From positions 8,718-72,717 of the forward strand of contig JAFZEA010000023.1 in the NCBI GenBank assembly GCA_017560905.1: DNA of 64,000 nt, in the 5' to 3' direction. Shown here piece after piece: positions 8,689 to 52,777 of this stretch. Each line of letters starts with the position of its first letter. The first letter of the stretch is position 1. This DNA is from Clostridia bacterium (GTDB taxonomy: Bacteria > Bacillota > Clostridia > Oscillospirales > QAKW01). The position numbers were made by a program, and so were the translations under genes. Below the pieces are notes generated by a model. It searched no databases. It saw nothing but the letters and a program-made list of their open reading frames with translations, and had not been told where the DNA came from.

Positions 8689-10164
8689 TTACTCTTCGGT
8701 CGAGGAGGTGTCGGCCTCAACTTCGATCTTCTCAACAACTTCGTTGTAAGCGGTGTACTGCTCGACAACGGCATTAATGTTGTCCTGATAATCAGCATCG
8801 TTGCGGTAGAGGTCGATCAGGCAGTTGACATAGTAACCGTAGTTGAATTCTTGTTCGTTGGCAAGGCGGGCCATTTTTTGACGGTAGTAGTTGATCATCA
8901 ACTCGGGATAAACCAGATAATTCTCGGAAGAGGACTGGCTGGAGTTATCGGCATAGCTGATAGAACTGGTGTTACCGTACAACTTATCCAAAGACTTGGT
9001 GTAGTAAATGACTTCCTTTTTGATTTCGTTCTTCAGGGCACCTGCCAGGGTGGCATAGTTAGCTGCATTATGTCTGGCCAGATAGTTACCGCAGGACAGG
9101 TATGCATTAAAGTAAGCGGAGTACTGTACGTAGGCAACGTCGCTGTACTGAGAGCATACGATGTAAGCGATCATATCAGCTTGTGTATCGGATTGGAAGC
9201 CTCTCTGCTTGGCGATCGCTTTGGCGATCAGCATAGGTGTGGCAACCTTGGGGAAATAGGGATTGATCAAAGCCTCACCGGTCAAGGGGGAGTAAATGCT
9301 GCCGATGTTCAAGGCATTGTAGATGGGACCGGCCAACAGCTCCTTGGCTGTGATCTCGGAACCTGCCAATGCGGGAATGTCCTCTGCAGCTCTCTTGAAA
9401 GCTTCGTTTACAGCGGCGGAGATCTTGGCGGTGGAACTGCCGGAAACATTGGGCTTGGAAGCACCGGTGTTACCGTTGTAGACAATGGTCTGATCGGCTG
9501 CGGCATCCTCGATAACGGTGGTGTTGAGCTTGTCAATGAAGTACAGCAAAGCTTCACTCAGTTGTGCTTCATAACTCTTGGTATTGGTATACATCGGCTG
9601 ACCGTTGATCTCAGCGGTTGCATTGTGGAAAGCGGTGCGGTTGCCGATAATGCCGTAGCCGAAGCTGAACAGCATAGCGATGACCATCAAAACAGCCAGT
9701 GTGGAATAACCGAACTGGATCCACAAACGGGTAGCAAGCAGCTTGCCGTTTTTATGAGTCTGGATAAATCTGACAATAATGAATACCAGATAACCCAGCC
9801 AACCCAACGCAGTCAGAATGACCACGATCTCCATAACGGAGAAGGGAAGGAAATTGTTGATGGCAGCCAATACACCGGTAAATCCTTTGTAGAAACCGCT
9901 CAGCGCATCGGAAAATCCGGGGATGAGTGCGGCAAGCAACCAAAAGATTGTGGAAATCAGGCCGATACCGATGATCGAAAACTTGATGATGGTATTGACA
10001 GTGGGAGTCAGCAACAAGAATTTTGCTTTTTCCTTACCTGTCAGAGTACCCTCCTCGTAATCGAGGATTTCCTGATCTGTAAATTCCAATAAAGCGTTCT
10101 GCTCTGCGACGTCAGCAGAGGCAGCTTCCATAACAGTGGAAGTACCTTTCATCTCTTCGCTCAT
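8689..10164 (-). CDS. polytopic membrane protein of unknown function (possibly DUF3810-like)
   Basis: 491 aa. Acidic N-terminus, about 4 TM helices, then a large extracytoplasmic domain. A -35/-10 pair (ttgcac-17-taaaat) and aaggagg lie upstream on the minus strand. Confidence 0.6.
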   Translation of the reverse strand: MSEEMKGTSTVMEAASADVAEQNALLEFTDQEILDYEEGTLTGKEKAKFLLLTPTVNTIIKFSIIGIGLISTIFWLLAALIPGFSDALSGFYKGFTGVLAAINNFLPFSVMEIVVILTALGWLGYLVFIIVRFIQTHKNGKLLATRLWIQFGYSTLAVLMVIAMLFSFGYGIIGNRTAFHNATAEINGQPMYTNTKSYEAQLSEALLYFIDKLNTTVIEDAAADQTIVYNGNTGASKPNVSGSSTAKISAAVNEAFKRAAEDIPALAGSEITAKELLAGPIYNALNIGSIYSPLTGEALINPYFPKVATPMLIAKAIAKQRGFQSDTQADMIAYIVCSQYSDVAYVQYSAYFNAYLSCGNYLARHNAANYATLAGALKNEIKKEVIYYTKSLDKLYGNTSSISYADNSSQSSSENYLVYPELMINYYRQKMARLANEQEFNYGYYVNCLIDLYRNDADYQDNINAVVEQYTAYNEVVEKIEVEADTSSTEE

Positions 10165-10271
10165 TGAAAGTCCTCCTTATAACCCTTAATATAATTATTT
10201 TATACTATTACTCTTAAAAGTGCAAGAGTAAATTGGTAATTTCTATATTTTTTATATAAAATAACTAAAAA

Positions 10272-11120
10272 TTAACCGTTGACCTTAAACAGTACGCCGA
10301 GAGTACCCTGTCCGCAATGGCTGTTTATGGTGCTTCCTGCCTTAGTTTCGTAGATATTTTCGAAAATTGCGGCGGATTCTACCTCTGCACGTACGGCGGC
10401 AACGATGGCTTCGTCACAGTTGGCATGTGTGATAAATACGTTTTTGGGGTTAATGTTTTCGGTGCTCAGAACCTCACGGACGTATTTGATAATGACGGTA
10501 GCCATGGGACCGCGGTATTTGGTACCCACACCCATTTTGCCGTCTTTGACGTCAATGCGGGGATGCAGTTTGAGCATATTGGCGCCCAGTGCCGCAACGG
10601 TACTGCAGCGGCCGCCCATGCGCAGGTAATCCAATACATCCACTACGAAACTGGCACGCACGTTGGGAATAGCGTTCTCGATCTCTTCGAGGATTGCGGA
10701 AATCTCTTTGCCTGCAGCGATGCTGTCGACGGTATCCAGAATCAACAGTGAGATACCGGTGGACAGATTGCGGGAATCAATGACGTGAATATGTTCGCCC
10801 ACTTCGCTTGCGGCAATGCAGGCATTCTGGTAAGACGAGGACATATCACTGCTGATGGTAAAATGGATTACCTCACTGCCGTCGGCAGATAATTTGGTGA
10901 AGAAATCAAGATAATCGGCAAAGGAACGGGCGGCTGTTTTGGGCAGCTGCTTGTTGGCAGCAACGTAGGAATAGATGTCAGTGGGGTGGATGTCCACGCC
11001 GTCCTGATAATACGTTTCGCCCAGACCGACCAGCAAAGGCATAATGTTAATGTTCAGCTTTTGGATCAGCTCGGGGCTGAGATCGCAAACGCTGTCAGCT
11101 GAAAGAACGATTTTACTCAT
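10272..11120 (-). CDS. DegV family fatty-acid-binding protein
   Basis: The typical DegV N-terminus (I.LSADSVCDL) and a length of 282 aa. Confidence 0.85.
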   Translation of the reverse strand: MSKIVLSADSVCDLSPELIQKLNINIMPLLVGLGETYYQDGVDIHPTDIYSYVAANKQLPKTAARSFADYLDFFTKLSADGSEVIHFTISSDMSSSYQNACIAASEVGEHIHVIDSRNLSTGISLLILDTVDSIAAGKEISAILEEIENAIPNVRASFVVDVLDYLRMGGRCSTVAALGANMLKLHPRIDVKDGKMGVGTKYRGPMATVIIKYVREVLSTENINPKNVFITHANCDEAIVAAVRAEVESAAIFENIYETKAGSTINSHCGQGTLGVLFKVNG

Positions 11121-11274
11121 AGTCAGATACTCCTTCTTTTTAACTTACTATTAATAATATGTTTTTTTGCGGCGATTGTCAATCAAATTATTTTTTTAGG
11201 CAAGGAAGTGACATTTTTTTTCGGGTGGAGCGCGTAAGATAGTATGTAGTATTGGCGAAAAGGCGTGAAACGAT

Positions 11275-12141
11275 TTGACCATATATGTAGATCTGCTGTT
11301 CATTGTCAACTGGGTGCTTAATTCTTTGGTGCTGGCGGCCGCAGCGGCGTTGGCAAGAGAAAAACTGCACCGCTTGCGCTTGCTGACGGCGGCGGCACTG
11401 GGCGCACTGTACAGTGTAATGATGTTTTTTCCCGAAACCGAGTTTTTGTACCGTGCCGTCATCCGTCTGGTGACGGGAGCGGTGATGGTACTCATCGGGT
11501 TGCCCACCCCCTCGTTGCGACGGTTTTTGAGAGCGCTTCTTTGTTTTTACATATCTTTGGGTGTATTCGGCGGCGGAATGTATATTTTCTATAATTTTAC
11601 GGCGGCGGGTGCCAATATGGTGTATTCCAACGGCGTATATTATGTGGATCTGCCGCTGTGGATGTTGTTGGTGCTCAGCTTTGGGTTTTACGGTGTGATA
11701 CGGCTTACTGCATTTGTGCAGTACCGCCGCCGTCCGACGGAGGGGCTGGTCGAGGTGGAGATTTGCTGCAGAGGACAGTACAGAACACTGACCGCTTTTC
11801 TGGATACGGGAAATTCTCTGGTGGATCCTATGACTCTGTCTCCCGTGGTGGTGGCAGAGGCTGCGGCACTGAAGGGAATGTTGCCTGCCGAATTACTGTC
11901 GGCTGTGCGGGAGGGGCGTCCTGAGCTGTTGGCGGAGCTGTCGGCTCAACATTCGGGGCTTAAATGTCGGTTGATTCCTTACAAGGGCGCCGTGGGCGAG
12001 AGTTGTCTTTTGTTTGCCGTTCGCCCCGATTGGATCCGCCGTCTGCCCGACGGGGCGCCAGTGGAAAATGTTCTTTTGGGGTTGACAGGGCATAAACTGT
12101 CGGAAGAATATCAGGTGCTGTTGCACGGAGAAGGTTTGTAG
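11275..12141 (+). CDS. spoIIGA: sigma-E processing aspartic peptidase SpoIIGA
   Basis: N-terminus [14 protein letters not shown], five TM segments and the LDTGNSL active-site motif. It lies directly upstream of sigE. The TTG start is uncertain. Confidence 0.85.
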
Positions 12142-47233: not shown

Positions 47234-47270
47234 ACCCTTACCATTCAAAACTATAAAAAGGTGTTTGTCT

Positions 47271-47312
47271 TGGCGTTGTGTTCTAAAGGACACAACGCCA
47301 GTTTTATTTTTT
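47271..47312 (+). terminator. Rho-independent terminator of the pur-fhs operon
   Basis: tggcgttgtgt (47271-81) pairs with acacaacgcca (47290-300), followed by ttttatttttt. It is nested inside a 15-bp inverted repeat (47255-69 / 47342-56). Confidence 0.85.
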
Positions 47313-47429
47313 GTGCTTCTTTTTTAGGGCACAACCCATAGGACAAACACCTTTTTTGCATACGGAAAAACGGCTGTTGGTTTCGCAATGTGTTTTTTTG
47401 TAAAAACTCTTTAAAAATAAATATTTAGG

Positions 47430-47438
47430 TGTTATAAT
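47430..47438 (+). promoter_or_regulatory. Extended -10 element (TGtTATAAT) upstream of murT
   Basis: tgttataat lies 34 nt upstream of ATG 47473. The -35 is weak. Confidence 0.4.
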
Positions 47439-47472
47439 AATTTCTGTAAAGTAATATATAGGAGTTGATGAT

Positions 47473-48789
47473 ATGAGATTTGCTCTGACTGCACTGTTGT
47501 GTAAGGCACTGAGCATAGCGGGTAAGTTGTTGGGCGGCGGCACCGATCTGCCGGGCAAAATTGCACTGAAAATGTATCCGCGCGTTATGAAAAAGCTGAA
47601 ATTTGACGGCAAAGTGTTGGCTATCACCGGCTCTAACGGTAAGACAACCACTGCCAACATCGTGGCACACGTTCTCCGCGAAAACGGCTACAGTGTTGTC
47701 AATAACGAGTTGGGATCCAATATGACCAGCGGTATTGCTTCCACGCTGTTGTGTGCGTGTACTCTGGGCGGCAGGATCAAGGCAGATTATGTCGTACTGG
47801 AAGTGGACGAGTGTTACAGCCGCTTTATATTCAAAGATCTGCGCATCGATTATTATTTGATACTTAATCTTTTGCGAGATCAGGTGGTGCGTAACGGTCA
47901 TCCCGATCTGGTCAGCACCAAAATTGTCGAGGCCATTGCCGCACAGCCTGAGATGACGCTCATTCTTAATGCTCAAGAGCCCATTTCGCAAAATCTGGCA
48001 GGGGACAACTACGCGGTATACTTTGCTATGGATCGCACCGAGCGTTCTACCGACAACTGTGTCAGCGGCACCCACGATGCCAAGATCTGTCCTCGTTGCT
48101 TCCACGAAATGAAGTACGAATTTTTCCACTACAATCATCTGGGTAATTTTGCTTGTACCCACTGTGATTATCAGAGTTTTCATCCCGATTTTTTGGCCAC
48201 CGACGTTGACTTTGAAAATAGGACGATTACCATCAACGGCGAACAGATCTCCGTGACTTACAACACCACCTTTAATATGTTCAACACCGTAGCCGCCGCT
48301 GCGCTGGCACTGACGGCAGGCGTGAGTATGGAGGAGTTTAAAAAAGGCGTAGCCACCTTCGGCGGTGCTAAGGGACGACTGGATACCTTTGACTTTGAGG
48401 GAAGAAAGGTCACCCTGATGATGACCAAGCAAAACGCCGCATCGCTTGACCAGTCCATTTCTTTTGTGTTGGAGCAAGCGGGGGATAAGAGCGTAGTGCT
48501 GTTTATCAACAACGTATTGTATCTTGACTATAAGGATATTTCCTGGTTATATGATGTGGCATTTGAAAGACTGCACGGTAAGGTTAAAAATATTCTTTGT
48601 ACCGGTAACCGTGCACTGGATGCTGCCGTTTGTATCAAGGCCTGCGATTTTGACAGTCGGACACTGCATTATGAGAATGACCTGTCCAAGATCAAAGAGG
48701 CTTTCCGCAATACTGAGGGCGATATCTATATCCTCGCCGCTTCTGCTTTCGGTCACGAGGGCAAGATCATAGAGGAGTTGAAAAAATGA
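47473..48789 (+). CDS. murT: MurT-like Mur ligase family protein (lipid II isoglutaminyl synthase ligase-subunit homologue)
   Basis: ITGSNGKTTT P-loop, the Cys4 ribbon CPRC...CTHC and a DUF1727-like C-terminus (DISWLYDVAFE). 438 aa. Confidence 0.8.
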   Translation: MRFALTALLCKALSIAGKLLGGGTDLPGKIALKMYPRVMKKLKFDGKVLAITGSNGKTTTANIVAHVLRENGYSVVNNELGSNMTSGIASTLLCACTLGGRIKADYVVLEVDECYSRFIFKDLRIDYYLILNLLRDQVVRNGHPDLVSTKIVEAIAAQPEMTLILNAQEPISQNLAGDNYAVYFAMDRTERSTDNCVSGTHDAKICPRCFHEMKYEFFHYNHLGNFACTHCDYQSFHPDFLATDVDFENRTITINGEQISVTYNTTFNMFNTVAAAALALTAGVSMEEFKKGVATFGGAKGRLDTFDFEGRKVTLMMTKQNAASLDQSISFVLEQAGDKSVVLFINNVLYLDYKDISWLYDVAFERLHGKVKNILCTGNRALDAAVCIKACDFDSRTLHYENDLSKIKEAFRNTEGDIYILAASAFGHEGKIIEELKK

Positions 48790-49502
48790 GAAACATAAAA
48801 ATATTGCATATTTATTCCAAGGCGCTTGATTTGTACGGAGATTATAAAAATCTGACAGTCCTCTCCCAGCGCATCCGCGAGACCGGCAACCAAGTGGAGA
48901 TCATCACCGCAGAACTTTTTGAAAACTTAGAGTTTTCGGGCTTTGATATGGTGTATATCGGTCATGGTAAGGTGAAGAATCTGGCGGCCGTGGCGGCTCA
49001 CTTTGTTCCCTACGCAGACAAGGTAAAAGAGCAGATCGAAAACGGACAGGTCTGGTTTGTTACCGGTAATGCTTCGGAGCTTTTTGGTCAGAGTTTTACC
49101 ACCCCCGACGGCGGGGAAATCAAGGGCATCGGCCTGTTTGACTATAAGGGCGTGGAAACCAATAAAGTATTTGTTTCTGATATGATCGGCCGTCCCGTAT
49201 TTGACAAAGAGGAAACCGTCTACGGTTTTGCCAACCGCACAGCGTATCTGGAGGGCGAGAACAAATATCCGCTCTTTGAGGTAATAGACGGCTTTTCAAA
49301 CGGCAAGACCCCTGACGGCAAGGAAGGCACGCTGTATAAAAACTTTTTTGCCACTTGGTCTATGGGACCGGTATTGTCCCGCAACCCCGCGCTGATGCGA
49401 GAGATTTTAAAACGCCTCTTAAAAGAGGACTACAAAGAATGTGATTATACTCTGGAGCAGCAGGCACTTGAACTGGTGTTGGCAGAGTTTAAGAAAGGAT
49501 AA
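48786..49502 (+). CDS. GatD-like CobQ/CobB-type glutamine amidotransferase homologue with substituted catalytic residues
   Basis: It overlaps murT by 4 nt. LDLYGDYKN and FTTPDGGEIKGIGLFDY align with GatD, but the nucleophile position reads TGNASE instead of CGGYQ, and the His position reads WSMGP instead of YLHGP. Confidence 0.7.
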   Translation: MRNIKILHIYSKALDLYGDYKNLTVLSQRIRETGNQVEIITAELFENLEFSGFDMVYIGHGKVKNLAAVAAHFVPYADKVKEQIENGQVWFVTGNASELFGQSFTTPDGGEIKGIGLFDYKGVETNKVFVSDMIGRPVFDKEETVYGFANRTAYLEGENKYPLFEVIDGFSNGKTPDGKEGTLYKNFFATWSMGPVLSRNPALMREILKRLLKEDYKECDYTLEQQALELVLAEFKKG

Positions 49503-49507
49503 TTGCT

Positions 49508-50920
49508 ATGGAACAAAAACTTGAACGCAAACTCAGTCCGCTCAACGTCTGGGCGTTGGCACTGGGCAGTATCATCGGTTGGGGCGCTTTCGTTATGCCC
49601 GGTAACACCTTTTTGCCCAACGCCGGTCCTGCCGGTACGGCGATCGCAATGGGTATTGCGGCGCTCATTATGATCTCGATCGCCTTTAACTACAACTATA
49701 TGATCAACAAGTACCCCGTTGCGGGCGGTGAATTTACCTACACCGAAAAGTCTTTTGGTAAAATTGCCGGTTACATATGCGCGTGGTTTTTGGGGCTGTC
49801 GTATCTTGCCATCGTTCCGCTCAACGCAACTGCGCTGGCACTGATCGGCAGAAACCTGTTTCCCGCTGTATTCCAGTGGGGTGAACTCTACACCGTAGAG
49901 GGATATACCATCTATGCAGGTGAGGTACTGCTCGCTGTGGTGGCTCTGGTACTTTTTGCGCTGATAAGCATCAGAGGTATCAGCGTGGCGGGTAAGTTCC
50001 AGACGGTTCTGGCTTTGCTGCTCGTTGGCTCGGTTGCCCTGCTGGGCGTGGCGGCGTTGATCTCCGATAAGGCAACGCTTACTCATATGATGCCTGCATT
50101 TCAGAGTAATGCGGCAGGCAATATCAATATCGGCGGCATTATCGCTGTCATAGCGGTAGCCCCTTGGGCATTTGTCGGTTTTGACTCCATTCCGCAGGCC
50201 AGTGAGGAGTTTAACTTCTCTCCCAAAAAGACCAAGATCATTATGGTGCTTTCCATTATTTTCGGTGGTCTGCTGTATGTGGTTCTCAATACCATCACTG
50301 CCGCAGTCGTTCCCGATGGTTATGCCAACTGGAGCGAATATATCGCAGAGTTTAAGAGTCTGGAGGGCATCTCCGCACTGCCTACCTTCAATGCGGCCGA
50401 AGAATTGTTGGGCATTCCCGGACTGATCGTATTGGCCGTGGCACTGTTCTGTGCCGTTCTCAGCGGTATCGTCGGCTTCTATATGGCCACCAGCCGCTTG
50501 CTTTATTCCGTGGCAAGAGAGGGCATTCTCCCTGCCGCATTTGCCAAACTGCACCCCAAGTATAACACACCCTATGTCGCCATTCTCTTTATTATGATCA
50601 TTTCTTTGATCGCGCCTTGGTTTGGCAGAGAGGTATTGGGTTGGGTCGTAGATATGTCTTCTATCGGTGCGGCCATTGGTTACGGATTTACATCGCTGGC
50701 CACATTTGCTACCCTGCAGAGATGCAAAGAAAAAAGTATAGGCCTGCGCATCAACGCCATTATCGGCGCGCTGTTCTCCCTTGCATTCGTGGCACTGTTG
50801 CTCAGCCCCGCTTCTTTAGGCTTCGGAGGACTCAGCATGCCTGCCCGAATTGCACTGGCGGTCTGGGTAGTACTGGGTATCGTATTTTTCTTTGTTGCCA
50901 AAAAAGGGAAGAAGGTATAA
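49508..50920 (+). CDS. APC-family amino acid permease
   Basis: 470 aa, about 12 TM. The N-terminus is L..LNVWALALGSIIGWGAF. Confidence 0.85.
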   Translation: MEQKLERKLSPLNVWALALGSIIGWGAFVMPGNTFLPNAGPAGTAIAMGIAALIMISIAFNYNYMINKYPVAGGEFTYTEKSFGKIAGYICAWFLGLSYLAIVPLNATALALIGRNLFPAVFQWGELYTVEGYTIYAGEVLLAVVALVLFALISIRGISVAGKFQTVLALLLVGSVALLGVAALISDKATLTHMMPAFQSNAAGNINIGGIIAVIAVAPWAFVGFDSIPQASEEFNFSPKKTKIIMVLSIIFGGLLYVVLNTITAAVVPDGYANWSEYIAEFKSLEGISALPTFNAAEELLGIPGLIVLAVALFCAVLSGIVGFYMATSRLLYSVAREGILPAAFAKLHPKYNTPYVAILFIMIISLIAPWFGREVLGWVVDMSSIGAAIGYGFTSLATFATLQRCKEKSIGLRINAIIGALFSLAFVALLLSPASLGFGGLSMPARIALAVWVVLGIVFFFVAKKGKKV

Positions 50921-50943: not shown

Positions 50944-51087
50944 TTGTATAAAAACAATGGTAGGGAGGACATCCCCAACGGACAGATCCTCGTAGATGAG
51001 GGTAAGATCGTTGCGGTGGGTACGGATATAGCGGTACCTGCAGGCCATTCCTCGTCACGGAAACGGAGCCACCCGTATCAATGTTGA
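50944..51087 (+). pseudogene. N-terminal fragment of an amidohydrolase-superfamily gene
   Basis: The frame reads LYKNNGREDIPNGQILVDEGKIVAVGTDIAVPAG, a typical amidohydrolase N-terminal beta-sandwich, then unrelated residues and a stop at 51085-87. Confidence 0.5.
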
Positions 51088-51368
51088 TGGAGAGCAGTGA
51101 ACCGTTGATGAGAGCGATTCAAAAGAATTTACAGCGTTGCGGTTTGCGCACGACAGAGAATTTGTCTATGGTTTTGGGTGGCAGTGAGGATGTGTCTTAT
51201 ATGATCAACCGTGTGCAGGAGCGGGGCGGACAAGCTTCCTTTATGCGCCTGCTCACCGATATGGCAGGACCTGCGCATAACCCAAACTTTGATTTTGATG
51301 AGCGGGTATTGGTCAACGGCGTGTGCGCTCTTGCAGGATACGTTCTCTTTGGCGATAAGGAATTTTAG
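51081..51368 (+). pseudogene. C-terminal fragment of an M20-family amidohydrolase/peptidase gene
   Basis: GGSEDVSYM...GPAHNPNFDFDERVLVNG is the C-terminal signature of M20D amidohydrolases. Only about 95-120 codons remain, and the frame is open back to 51006. Confidence 0.55.
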
Positions 51369-51437: not shown

Positions 51438-51463
51438 CGTATACTAAAGTTGAGGTGATGAAC

Positions 51464-52777
51464 ATGCATCAATCCATTTGGAAAGAAACCAAGCTAGCGT
51501 CCTTTCCTCGGCTGACAGAAAACAAGAAAACCGACGTGCTGATCATCGGCGGCGGTTTGTGCGGTGTGCTGTGCGCCTATTATCTGAAGCAGGCAGGAGT
51601 GGACTGCCTGTTGGTGGAAGGCGACCGCATTGGGTCGGGCGTAAGCGGCAATACCACGGGTAAGGTTACGTGGTTGCAAGGGCTGGTCTATTCCGATCTC
51701 ATTCAAAAATACGGTCGGGAAAAGGCGCAAATGTATCTGCGCTCACAGCAAGAGGCACTGAGAGAATATGAAAAATTGTCTGATGCCTACGACTTTGACT
51801 TTGAAAAGCGCAGTGCCTATACCTATTCACTTAAAAGTAAAGAGGGGGTGGAGCGAGAGGGAATCGCTCTGCGCGCATTGGGGGCTGAGGTACACCTCAG
51901 TGCAGCAGAGGAACTCCCCTTTAAAACACAAGGGACGCTGTGCGCCGCAGAGCAGGGACAGCTCAATATCATAAAACTGTTGCGGCATCTGACGCGTGAC
52001 ATTACCGTTTTTGAGCACACGTTTGTAAAGAATATTACCGCTGAGGGAGTATATTTTCATCACGGTGTTATATGTGCCAAGAATATTATTGTCGCCACTC
52101 ATTTTCCCTTTGTTGACCGATGGGGCGGTTATTTTCTCAAGCAGTATCAGCACCGCTCTTATGTGCTTGCACTAAAAAATGCCCCGCGGATCAAGGGCAT
52201 GTATGTTGACGAAGCGGATAAGGGTATGTCGTTTCGCTCTTATGGGGATACGCTGTTGCTGGGTGGCGGCGGACACCGTACGGGCAAGCGGGGCGGAGGC
52301 TTTGAGGAAGTTGAAAATTTTGTTCGCTCGTATTATCCCAAAGCCAAGGTCGTCACTTGCTGGGCCACACAGGACTGTATGACACTGGACCGCTTGCCTT
52401 ATATCGGACAGTATTCTTCCAAAACACCAAACATATTTGTAGCTACGGGATTTAATAAATGGGGGCTGACCAATTCTATGGCGGCGGCCCTGCTGCTCAG
52501 GGACAGCATTTTGGGCAAAAAGAAGGACTGGGACTTGGTATTCTCGCCGCGGCGCTCTGTGCTTCATCCGCAGTTTTTTATCAACCTTGGGGAAACGGCG
52601 GGTAATATGATATTGCCGCTGCCAAAGCGTTGTTCACATCTGGGGTGCGCTTTGCACTATAATAAGGCAGAACATTCCTGGGATTGCCCCTGTCACGGCT
52701 CTCGGTTTTCCGAAAACGGCAAGGTTCTCGACAATCCCGCCGACCGCCCTGCGAATGTAAAATCTCATTTTCATTAA
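51464..52777 (+). CDS. FAD-dependent oxidoreductase with a C-terminal Rieske [2Fe-2S] domain (YhfW-like)
   Basis: DVLIIGGGLCG dinucleotide motif and the Rieske motif CSHLGC...CPCHGS. ATG 51464 lies 6 nt after gaggtg. 51455 and 51458 are alternatives. Confidence 0.85.
   Translation: MHQSIWKETKLASFPRLTENKKTDVLIIGGGLCGVLCAYYLKQAGVDCLLVEGDRIGSGVSGNTTGKVTWLQGLVYSDLIQKYGREKAQMYLRSQQEALREYEKLSDAYDFDFEKRSAYTYSLKSKEGVEREGIALRALGAEVHLSAAEELPFKTQGTLCAAEQGQLNIIKLLRHLTRDITVFEHTFVKNITAEGVYFHHGVICAKNIIVATHFPFVDRWGGYFLKQYQHRSYVLALKNAPRIKGMYVDEADKGMSFRSYGDTLLLGGGGHRTGKRGGGFEEVENFVRSYYPKAKVVTCWATQDCMTLDRLPYIGQYSSKTPNIFVATGFNKWGLTNSMAAALLLRDSILGKKKDWDLVFSPRRSVLHPQFFINLGETAGNMILPLPKRCSHLGCALHYNKAEHSWDCPCHGSRFSENGKVLDNPADRPANVKSHFH

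Follow-up and report, generated by a model that had tools for sequence, protein, structure and literature searches.

A MurT/GatD-like gene pair with a predicted pseudo-glutaminase subunit, from a large Cys-less clade of gut and rumen bacteria

The lipid II isoglutaminyl synthase MurT/GatD, which amidates D-isoglutamate (D-iGlu) in peptidoglycan precursors, modifies the peptidoglycan of staphylococci, streptococci, and mycobacteria, in which it is essential and a drug target. Its operon has been called "widespread in the Clostridiales" (PMC6085368). In the described systems of Staphylococcus aureus, Streptococcus pneumoniae, Streptococcus pyogenes, and Mycobacterium tuberculosis (6gs2, 6h5e, 6fqb, and 9sq9), adjacent, coupled genes encode a Mur-family ligase, MurT, and a glutaminase partner, GatD. 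By itself, S. aureus MurT shows no activity whatever the nitrogen donor, and even a catalytically dead GatD is still required; the complex MurT/GatD_C94G loses glutamine-dependent lipid II amidation and keeps NH3-dependent amidation at pH 8.5 (Munch et al. 2012, PMC3266927). Here, we describe a MurT/GatD-like gene pair in a 64,000-nucleotide (nt) stretch, called the window below, of a Clostridia bacterium contig (JAFZEA010000023.1, positions 8,718 to 72,717 of the forward strand; GenBank assembly GCA_017560905.1). The pair keeps the MurT/GatD fold and the ligase residues, has lost the Cys and His of the glutaminase site, and, judging from its sequence, is best placed in a so far undescribed sister clade of MurT/GatD whose glutaminase-like subunit is a predicted pseudo-enzyme.

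The MurT-like gene (47473..48789; an open reading frame [ORF] of 438 amino acids [aa]) encodes a Mur ligase central domain, a Cys4 ribbon, and a MurT_C/DUF1727 domain, and the GatD-like gene (48786..49502; an ORF of 238 aa) encodes a protein of the GATase_3 fold without the catalytic Cys and His; coordinates of the pair and its features are window positions on the + strand. The stop codon of the first gene and the start codon of the second share a 4-nt ATGA overlap, and the pair is translationally coupled. A first-pass annotation of the window had proposed the MurT/GatD architecture, the overlap, and, in the ligase, the P-loop ITGSNGKTTT, the Cys4 motif CPRC...CTHC, and a DUF1727-type C terminus, all of which were found in place. 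Pfam assigned MurT_C (PF08353, 1e-19) and Mur_ligase_M (PF08245, 6.8e-7) to the MurT-like protein and GATase_3 (1.8e-11) to its partner. The top solved-structure match of the MurT-like protein was S. aureus MurT (6gs2_B, 2e-51), and those of the GatD-like protein were S. pneumoniae GatD (6fqb_E, 1.6e-21) followed by S. aureus GatD (5n9m, 2.7e-21; 6gs2, 3.1e-21); for both proteins, the nearest solved structures were those of MurT and GatD from S. aureus, S. pneumoniae, and S. pyogenes. An AlphaFold2 model of the GatD-like protein (predicted local distance difference test [pLDDT], 95.9) has the GATase_3/GatD fold including its C-terminal helical extension, and Foldseek matched it to S. aureus GatD 6gs2_A (template modeling [TM] score, 0.89; root mean square deviation, 2.2 Å), with other amidotransferases at 0.57 or below. 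A place in a characterized non-GatD family (CobQ, HisH, PdxT, or archaeal pMur ligases) was considered and rejected, as MurT and GatD gave far better sequence and fold matches. Identity to the canonical proteins is 27 to 28% for MurT and 22 to 26% for GatD, and both window proteins fall below the NCBIfam equivalog cutoffs: the MurT-like protein scores 209.5 and 193.4 bits (NF052464/NF045635) against a cutoff of 800, and the GatD-like protein 93 and 83.8 bits (NF045636/NF052463) against cutoffs of 400 and 450.

The substitutions C94G, C94S, C94A, H189A, and R128A each kill the glutamine-dependent activity of S. aureus GatD (PMC6113224, PMC5871853, PMC3266927), R128A by abolishing glutaminase activity (PMC5871853). 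Canonical machinery was listed after PMC5871853, and GatD residue counts are for the 120 closest homologues of the window protein (43 to 100% identity). An alignment with phmmer against the Protein Data Bank (PDB), a MAFFT alignment with the 120 homologues, and the Foldseek superposition agree that the nucleophile Cys94 is replaced by Gly94 (codon GGT, 49065-49067; Gly in 120/120) and the catalytic His189 by Met193 (codon ATG, 49362..49364; Met in 99/120, Leu in 9, Val in 4, Ile in 3, and His in 2), as the first-pass annotation had read them by eye; the G-P that follows is kept. The former nucleophile elbow, T-I-C-G-G-Y-Q in canonical GatD, is V92-T93-G94-N95-A96-S97-E98 (49059..49079), in which the canonical Ile93 has become Thr (114/120), the oxyanion-hole Gly95 Asn (110/120), Gly96 Ala or Ser (117/120), and Tyr97 Arg (115/120; the window protein itself has Ser); Gln98 is Glu in the window protein. 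In the former oxyanion strand, G59-H60-G61-K62 (48960..48971; canonical G-G-G-S/Q), the oxyanion-hole Gly60 is replaced by His (113/120) and Ser62 by Lys (115/120). The glutamine-capturing Arg128 is Val (49167..49169; 119/120), Glu147 is hydrophobic (Ala in the window protein), and His149 is deleted. Residue 97 (49074-49076), Ser in the window, is Gln or Ser in its close relatives, so this new pocket residue, Arg97 in most of the family, is not kept in the window's own lineage.

What faces the ligase was retained. The gate or plug segment Y17-G18-D19-Y-K-N22 (48834..48851) is conserved (Y17 in 116/120; G18, D19, and N22 each in 117/120), and roles for the equivalent S. pneumoniae residues N28-T29-Y30 and D32 are given in PMC6085368. 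Asp32 of S. pneumoniae GatD, which corresponds to Asp19 of S. aureus GatD, has been proposed from the structure as an alternative third triad residue (PMC6085368); D19 is thus among the conserved positions. Out of the Cys-His-acid triad of class I amidotransferases, then, the Cys and the His are absent, and the only residues remaining are acidic, D19 of the GatD-like protein and D355 of the MurT-like protein. Taken together, C94G, H189M, G60H, G95N, R128V, Q98E, E147A, and the deletion of H149 predict a subunit that cannot hydrolyze glutamine. The new conserved polar residues, with the MurT-facing Y17-G18-D19/N22 and the G-P still in place, point to a glutaminase pocket that has been rebuilt, not eroded.

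The first-pass annotation had gone further and counted a coordinated loss of all three triad residues, reading the third, donated by MurT, as substituted too. That part was mistaken, as it had taken the DNAAD motif for the triad donor. DNAAD is a proposed substrate-binding loop of MurT that is distinct from the triad residue, the latter being MurT-D349 within GRD349TSW (PMC6113224). In the window protein, the DNAAD loop is indeed replaced, by NNVLYLD with a one-residue insertion (48508..48528; D342 to Asn in 109/112), and GRD349TSW aligns with phmmer to YKD355ISW, in which Asp355 (codon GAT, 48535..48537) is conserved in 112/112 (MurT counts are for 112 full-length family members). Profile and structural alignment thus upheld the Cys and His substitutions and placed a MurT Asp at the catalytic position, so only two of the three residues are lost in the window pair. 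Both Asp residues of the MurT "negative gate," D355 and D361 (the latter also 112/112), are conserved in the window's family.

The ligase itself carries the features of the Mur ligase superfamily: the P-loop, Mg-binding Glu/Asp, the hinge Arg, and a three-layer central domain. In the P-loop (47623..47652), K57 and T58 are invariant (112/112); K59A in S. pneumoniae MurT, the equivalent of K57, abolishes activity (PMC6085368). The acceptor-carboxylate loop G81-S82-N83 (47713..47721; canonical G-A-N) has N83 in 112/112 and S82 in 99/112, and S. pneumoniae MurT N85A is inactive (PMC6085368). The Mg2+ ligands E110-V-D112-E113 (47800..47811; roles according to PMC6085368) keep E110, D112, and E113 in 112/112. 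The interface/channel loop RDQVVRNGH (47875..47901) retains R135 (111/112), D136, and R140 (both 112/112) and differs from canonical MurT by D139V and E143H; the activity of S. pneumoniae MurT depends on D136 and R140, and the effects of D139 and E143 are minor (PMC6085368). Each Cys of the zinc ribbon (48088..48165; C206, C209, C228, and C231) is present in 112/112, as is K319, and the hinge R302 and N321 (111/112 each) and N271 (110/112) are nearly so. Mutagenesis of S. pneumoniae and S. aureus MurT has identified residues that activity depends on (PMC6085368, PMC6113224), among them K59, T60, N85, E110, D112-E113, and R304 in S. pneumoniae numbering. Because every one of these residues is invariant or nearly invariant in the window's family, the MurT-like subunit looks like a fully active ligase.

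These substitutions are not confined to one genome. When 1.84 billion cluster representatives were scanned exhaustively with HMMER, 1,419 relatives were found. In public databases, the family goes only by the names "hypothetical protein," "DUF1727 domain-containing protein," "glutamine amidotransferase," and "CobQ-like..."; the named sources were almost all gut or rumen metagenome-assembled genomes (MAGs). A tree set (n = 158) combined the query and S. aureus GatD with ORFs derived from the loci and with those of the best 150 representatives that were full length. About 143 of these 158 sequences lack Cys and His and share a T-G-N-[AS] elbow, down to 28 to 30% identity, and 12, S. aureus GatD included, are canonical C/H GatDs. 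A profile of the Cys-less proteins matched 1,101 clusters at E ≤ 1e-10, almost all of which come from Oscillospirales, Erysipelotrichaceae, and related groups of the gut or rumen, and out of 48 members newly seen with it, 47 had T-G-N, all had T-G-N/T, and none had the His. A scan of species-representative genomes with a MurT alignment (the P-loop pattern matches all Mur ligases) gave at least 18 MurT-type loci. Among the matches listed, 18 species-genome loci had a GatD-like gene next to the MurT-like one; its product lacked Cys and His and had the T-G-N-[AS] elbow at 15 of them (Ruminococcaceae, Oscillospiraceae, Oscillibacter, Faecousia, Acutalibacteraceae, Erysipelotrichaceae, "Acholeplasma" CAG:878, and a Methanomethylophilaceae bin) and canonical at 3 (one Bacillota, one Clostridia, and one Chloroflexi MAG). 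The archaeal assignment is to a wall-less methanogen, a Candidatus Methanomethylophilaceae archaeon bin whose short contig of 4,136 bp (L008, CAVBAX010000129.1) holds a bacterial-type Cys-less pair; the pair could have been transferred horizontally, or the bin could be contaminated. The "Acholeplasma sp. CAG:878" locus was considered as a wall-less carrier that would refute a wall function and was set aside, as it has a GerM/Germane protein and an ordinary housekeeping context.

In a distance tree, the canonical GatDs form one clade. None of the Cys-less sequences falls within it; they split into at least three deep subgroups, A, to which the window pair belongs, B1, and B2. The canonical clade holds two sporadic single substitutions (S/H and D/H), and a G/H sequence branches just basal to it; these proteins (P0293, Ser/His; P0382, Asp/His; P0380, Gly/His) have the remaining glutaminase machinery intact, and their substitutions are independent and probably recent inactivations or variants, separate from the T-G-N clade. 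MurT identity is 27 to 31% for all pairs of groups, the subgroups being as distant from one another as from the canonical clade. The Cys-less clade can be defined by three features: T-G-N-[AS] where canonical GatDs have I-C-G-G, a residue other than His ahead of G-P, and pairing with a MurT that has A82S, a non-acidic residue 139, and the K-x-N insertion. The window pair has all three (VTGNA and SMGP; GSN, V139, and KQN in MurT). We found no description of such a clade in the literature searched on GatD variants, Ruminococcaceae MurT paralogues, MurT with polyamines, and DUF1727. Since a large family shares these substitutions as fixed differences and the window genome is not alone in having them, they reflect more than chance. 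The window pair is no single-genome peculiarity but belongs to a Cys-less clade that is both very large and deep.

The two subunits have changed together. A survey of orthologues for co-variation, as the first-pass annotation had suggested, found that MurT changes track the type of GatD: MurTs that partner Cys-less GatDs share changes not found in those that partner C/H GatDs, and they retain all the residues for ATP, Mg, and the acceptor carboxylate. These are Ser for the canonical Ala82, a non-acidic residue for D139, His or Asn for E143, a one-residue insertion turning K-N-P into K-[QE]-N, and a replacement of the DNAAD loop that differs by subgroup (NN[VI]LYLD in A, DA[IV]SRKF in B1, and DD.x[DE] in B2). 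Subgroup B GatDs keep Arg128 without the catalytic residues, and H60 and K62 are not conserved in B1 and B2. In subgroup B2, the MurT equivalent of Asp355 is also lost (V/N/S), so that this subgroup, in contrast to the window pair, has substitutions at each of the three triad positions; this was seen at L012 to L015, L018, and L023 (Acholeplasma sp. CAG:878, Faecousia, Acutalibacteraceae, and Clostridia MAGs). The ratio of GatD to MurT identity is 0.76 to 1.00 in Cys-less pairs versus 1.24 in canonical pairs, which indicates a somewhat relaxed constraint on GatD, not decay, and the conservation of G94 in 120/120 down to 43% identity suggests that the Cys-less GatD is under purifying selection.

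With a ligase that looks active and a partner that lacks its glutaminase residues, the carriers probably modify their peptidoglycan either with nitrogen from another source or with another group. Our tentative preference, held at somewhat less than an even chance, is that the pair is a glutamine-independent, ammonia-using derivative of the lipid II isoglutaminyl synthase, amidating D-iGlu with the GatD-like protein as an obligate, non-catalytic partner. The MurT-like ligase would bind ATP/Mg2+ and phosphorylate the α-carboxylate of D-iso-Glu in the lipid-linked peptidoglycan precursor, and a nitrogen nucleophile would then attack the acyl-phosphate on this subunit. The GatD-like subunit, in which Cys, His, and Arg128 are missing and the oxyanion hole is altered, would be unable to hydrolyze glutamine. 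Its role would be structural and obligate: it would complete the C-terminal domain of MurT and the entrance to what was once the ammonia path, of which the MurT-facing side is retained (Y17-G18-D19 and N22 in GatD; D355 and D361 in MurT). The nucleophile would most likely be the free cytoplasmic ammonia of gut and rumen anaerobes, whose habitats are ammonia rich. We thus infer lipid II D-iGlu as the acceptor, NH3 as the nucleophile, and a requirement for the GatD-like partner. The precedent of S. aureus MurT/GatD_C94G, with the same Cys-to-Gly change in a complex that still needs GatD and amidates with NH3, would explain the retention of a dead GatD, the conserved interface and gate residues, and the intact ligase. 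It differs in being a single-residue mutant that takes NH3 at pH 8.5 only; in the natural family, known from sequence, the pocket is remodeled and the MurT loops are co-adapted. Mitochondrial carbamoyl-phosphate synthetase I likewise works with free ammonia although its ancestor depended on glutamine, and it keeps an inactive class I glutaminase-like domain with its Cys replaced, but it is an ATP-grasp synthetase on a fused polypeptide in eukaryotes, so the analogy is one of principle only.

The locus has the signals of an expressed cassette. Upstream, an intrinsic-terminator-like hairpin (47270..47311, + strand; a 14-bp stem with 7 GC pairs, then TTTTATTTTT) probably ends the upstream fhs gene and separates the pair from it. 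A promoter-like site, TTTAAA-17-TG-TATAAT (47410..47438, + strand), lies 5′ of the MurT-like gene and matches the consensus at 10 of 12 positions with an extended −10 TG, a consensus match only. Direct reading of the sequence gives a ribosome-binding site, TAGGAG (47460..47465, + strand), 7 nt 5′ of the MurT-like ATG, and another, GAGGAG (48771..48776, + strand), for the GatD-like gene within the 3′ end of the MurT-like gene. A second, canonical murT-gatD was found neither in the 64-kb window (tblastn) nor at the loci retrieved for relatives. Beginning 6 nt past the GatD-like stop, with no terminator between, is a gene for an APC-superfamily permease of amino acid/polyamine type (49508..50920, + strand; 470 aa; Pfam AA_permease_2, 8.3e-38), probably the third gene of the cassette in the window's lineage. 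It has no NCBIfam equivalog and only distant similarity to the solved transporters GkApcT, LAT2, and CAT1. A permease gene holds the same position at L006:11981-13504, L086:7034-8452, L087:7177-8610, L090:6045-7487, and P0207 (a miscalled fusion), so that it is linked in 6 of 7 relatives with a MurT identity of at least 66%, their flanks being unrelated; it is absent at L091 (72% identity), L088, L089, L001, L003, and L004 and in all more distant members. At L087 (GCA_054297185), an Orn/Lys/Arg decarboxylase gene (OKR_DC_1; 10155-11332, − strand) and a second amino acid permease gene lie within 4 kb of the cassette; seen at this one locus, they are suggestive of diamine metabolism.

Across the family, genes of the murT-gatD type are adjacent at 18 of 21 distinct MurT-type loci (L001 to L023, among the matches listed). 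The flanks vary (pur/fhs in the window; elsewhere mnmG, recA, rpsB-tsf, alaS, or ABC transporters), as expected of a core housekeeping function, and clustering of ORFs within 6 kb at the 21 loci found no neighbor conserved family-wide and nothing in more than 4 loci; the upstream ORF common to L007, L010, and L023 is the housekeeping gene mnmG. The same clustering found no association with capsule or secondary-metabolite genes. Occasional neighbors are wall related: FemAB (L004), a MurJ/MatE-type gene (L089), and diaminopimelate (DAP) epimerase (L090). At L012 (8790-9791, − strand; Acholeplasma sp. CAG:878), and at no other locus, a "sugar-transfer associated ATP-grasp" gene (PF14397) divergently adjoins the MurT-like gene. 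Downstream of the permease in the window, a 95-aa ORF (51081-51368) aligns with the peptidase family M20 profile over its C-terminal part only (positions 128 to 204 of 206) and resembles a truncated remnant of a larger gene; after it (51455-52777), a 440-aa FAD-dependent oxidoreductase (DAO family) has a C-terminal Rieske [2Fe-2S] domain, an unusual pairing for which no equivalog was found.

Several observations weigh against an ammonia-using amidation complex. The S. aureus complex took NH3 at pH 8.5 only and not at pH 7.5 (PMC3266927), and efficient use of NH3 at neutral pH would require adaptation. The new polar pocket residues H60, K62, T93, N95, and R97 are strongly conserved (110 to 115/120), for which a pure scaffold or ammonia entrance has no obvious need. 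The DNAAD loop, which has been proposed to contact the stem peptide or the incoming group, has given way to a different conserved motif in each Cys-less subgroup, which looks like a change of specificity, and the MurT 135-143 loop has gained a His that canonical MurT does not have. Ammonia use also leaves the permease linkage in 6 of 7 close relatives unexplained, and some MurT-like genes have no adjacent GatD-like gene (L004:5977-7317/L005 [P0171, 57% identical] and L021:9971-11308; at L004, recA follows 166 nt after the MurT-like gene), the partner there being either encoded elsewhere or dispensed with. The acceptor substrate and the presence of iso-Gln in the walls of carriers are predictions only. 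Much of this would suit the main alternative, possible but doubtful, in which the ligase joins the D-iGlu α-carboxylate, or a similar group, to an amine other than ammonia (a diamine or polyamine, glycine, or another amino acid), the remodeled GatD-like pocket and MurT loop bind or deliver that amine, and the APC permease, co-transcribed with the pair in the lineage of the window, brings it into the cell. Near-invariant H60, K62, T93, N95, and R97 together with a kept gate (Y17/D19/N22 in GatD and D355/D361 in MurT) are consistent with it, and so is the position of the permease directly downstream of the pair in the window, L006, L086, L087, L090, and P0207, with the decarboxylase near L087. 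The specificity motif of MurE is of the DNPR type. Its MurT counterpart, the DNAAD loop (PMC6113224), is the one replaced subgroup by subgroup. Canonical MurT "lacks a histidine" in the 135-143 loop that is present in all amino-acid-adding Mur ligases (PMC6085368), and Cys-less-type MurTs have His (or Asn) at 143. Substituents other than ammonia do exist in nature on the D-Glu α-carboxyl of peptidoglycan: cadaverine or putrescine is attached there in Negativicutes. Among the Schleifer and Kandler chemotypes, this carboxyl carries Gly, Gly-amide, D-Ala-amide, or B-type cross-bridges. The literature searched names no enzyme that attaches them, and it is rather doubtful, though conceivable, that the Cys-less clade is this missing enzyme family, attaching non-ammonia nucleophiles to lipid II D-iso-Glu with subgroups A, B1, and B2 differing in specificity. 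Against a ligase of this kind, we found no direct evidence of such a substituent for Oscillospirales or their relatives; the T-G-N elbow is identical across subgroups, where different nucleophiles should have diversified the pocket; crystal structures show a long distance between the GatD pocket and the acyl-phosphate site of MurT (PMC6113224, PMC6085368); and the retained Tyr17 plug suggests that only a small molecule passes. The permease is also absent at L091 and in the more distant members, it matches no equivalog that would give its specificity, and no neighbor is shared family-wide.

It is unlikely that the pair acts on a different carboxylate acceptor (another wall polymer, a capsule, or a metabolite) or that the GatD-like protein is a ligand-sensing regulator, for instance of nitrogen status, gating MurT. 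Equivalog scores far under the cutoffs (209/800 and 93/400), the low identity to canonical MurT and GatD with subgroups mutually as distant, the glutamine-capturing Arg128 that subgroup B keeps without catalytic residues, and the lost DNAAD loop, implicated in stem-peptide binding, would fit such a role; the acceptor-side MurT residues G-x-N83, D112-E113, and R135/D136/R140 are kept, however, the context is single copy and housekeeping-like, as expected of a core wall function, and capsule or secondary-metabolite genes are not associated. A survey in which almost all bacteria carry one murT copy (bioRxiv 10.1101/2022.11.30.518518) would also fit the window pair as the organism's sole MurT. A cryptic glutaminase, releasing ammonia from glutamine or another amide such as asparagine through Thr93 with Lys62 or His60, is very unlikely. 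The three residues are new and near invariant in the former active site, and Thr/Ser-Lys amidases occur in other folds; the nucleophile of a class I amidotransferase must, however, occupy the strained elbow apex, which is now Gly94; Thr93 lies one position earlier and faces in the opposite direction. H60 and K62, moreover, are not conserved in B1 and B2 despite the same T-G-N elbow, and the glutamine-binding R128, Q98, E147, and H149 are lost in subgroup A. S. aureus GatD with Gly, Ser, or Ala at position 94 is inactive (PMC6113224, PMC3266927, PMC6085368). Decay of the pair into a non-functional remnant, which the first-pass annotation had already argued against, we regard as scarcely credible. 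The catalytic residues of one subunit are missing, constraint on GatD relative to MurT is lower than in canonical pairs, and some relatives have no adjacent GatD-like gene; but both frames are intact and coupled, each with a ribosome-binding site, G94 and D355 are invariant over 43 to 100% identity (120/120 and 112/112), the clade spans 1,101 clusters, dozens of invariant positions are focused in the pocket and interface, and the fold is predicted with high confidence (pLDDT 95.9; TM score 0.89). Family-wide conservation effectively refutes decay. The ideas of free ammonia, a non-amide substituent, and GatD as a scaffold, which that annotation had raised, are all live hypotheses, among which the ammonia-using complex is the one we tentatively prefer.

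Set beside the known systems, the window pair resembles canonical MurT in its Mur central domain, Cys4 ribbon, MurT_C domain, residues for ATP, Mg, and the acceptor, and triad Asp (D349 in S. aureus MurT, D355 in S. pneumoniae MurT), and canonical GatD in its GATase_3 fold with C-terminal helices, Y17/D19/N22, and the G-P after the His position. It differs in lacking Cys94, His189, Gly60, Gly95, Arg128, Gln98, Glu147, and His149 of GatD; in the DNAAD replacement, the insertion that turns KNP into KQN, A82S, D139V, and E143H of MurT; and in forming part of a separate clade below the equivalog cutoffs. The pair should not be filed as an orthologue of the glutamine-hydrolyzing synthase, since it departs from it at the Cys, the His, the oxyanion Gly, R128, the DNAAD loop, and the equivalog scores. 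MurC, MurD, MurE, and MurF share with it the ATP-dependent acyl-phosphate chemistry and the central domain, and often, with Cys-less-type MurTs, the 135-143 loop His; the MurT-like protein lacks their N-terminal UDP-binding domain and has the Cys4 ribbon, MurT_C, and a GatD-like partner. Attachment of polyamines in Negativicutes concerns the same carboxylate and a nitrogen nucleophile in different organisms; we found no evidence that the Cys-less family is involved in it, and it serves as a lead only.

A large share of the Clostridial homologues of MurT/GatD, more than 1,000 sequence clusters, is thus predicted to be unable to act as glutamine amidotransferases, and the database label "glutamine amidotransferase" is misleading for them. 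If free ammonia is used, the family would provide a natural pseudo-glutaminase kept as an obligate partner and would tie wall chemistry to the nitrogen ecology of the gut. If another amine is attached, the enzymes behind orphan peptidoglycan chemotypes would have been identified, and the peptidoglycan of dominant gut Clostridia would be chemically more diverse than has been recognized. The state of the D-iGlu α-carboxyl affects susceptibility to lysozyme and β-lactams (PMC6113224) and the recognition of muropeptides by host NOD receptors (PMC11132681), so the Cys-less family may be relevant to how abundant commensals are sensed.

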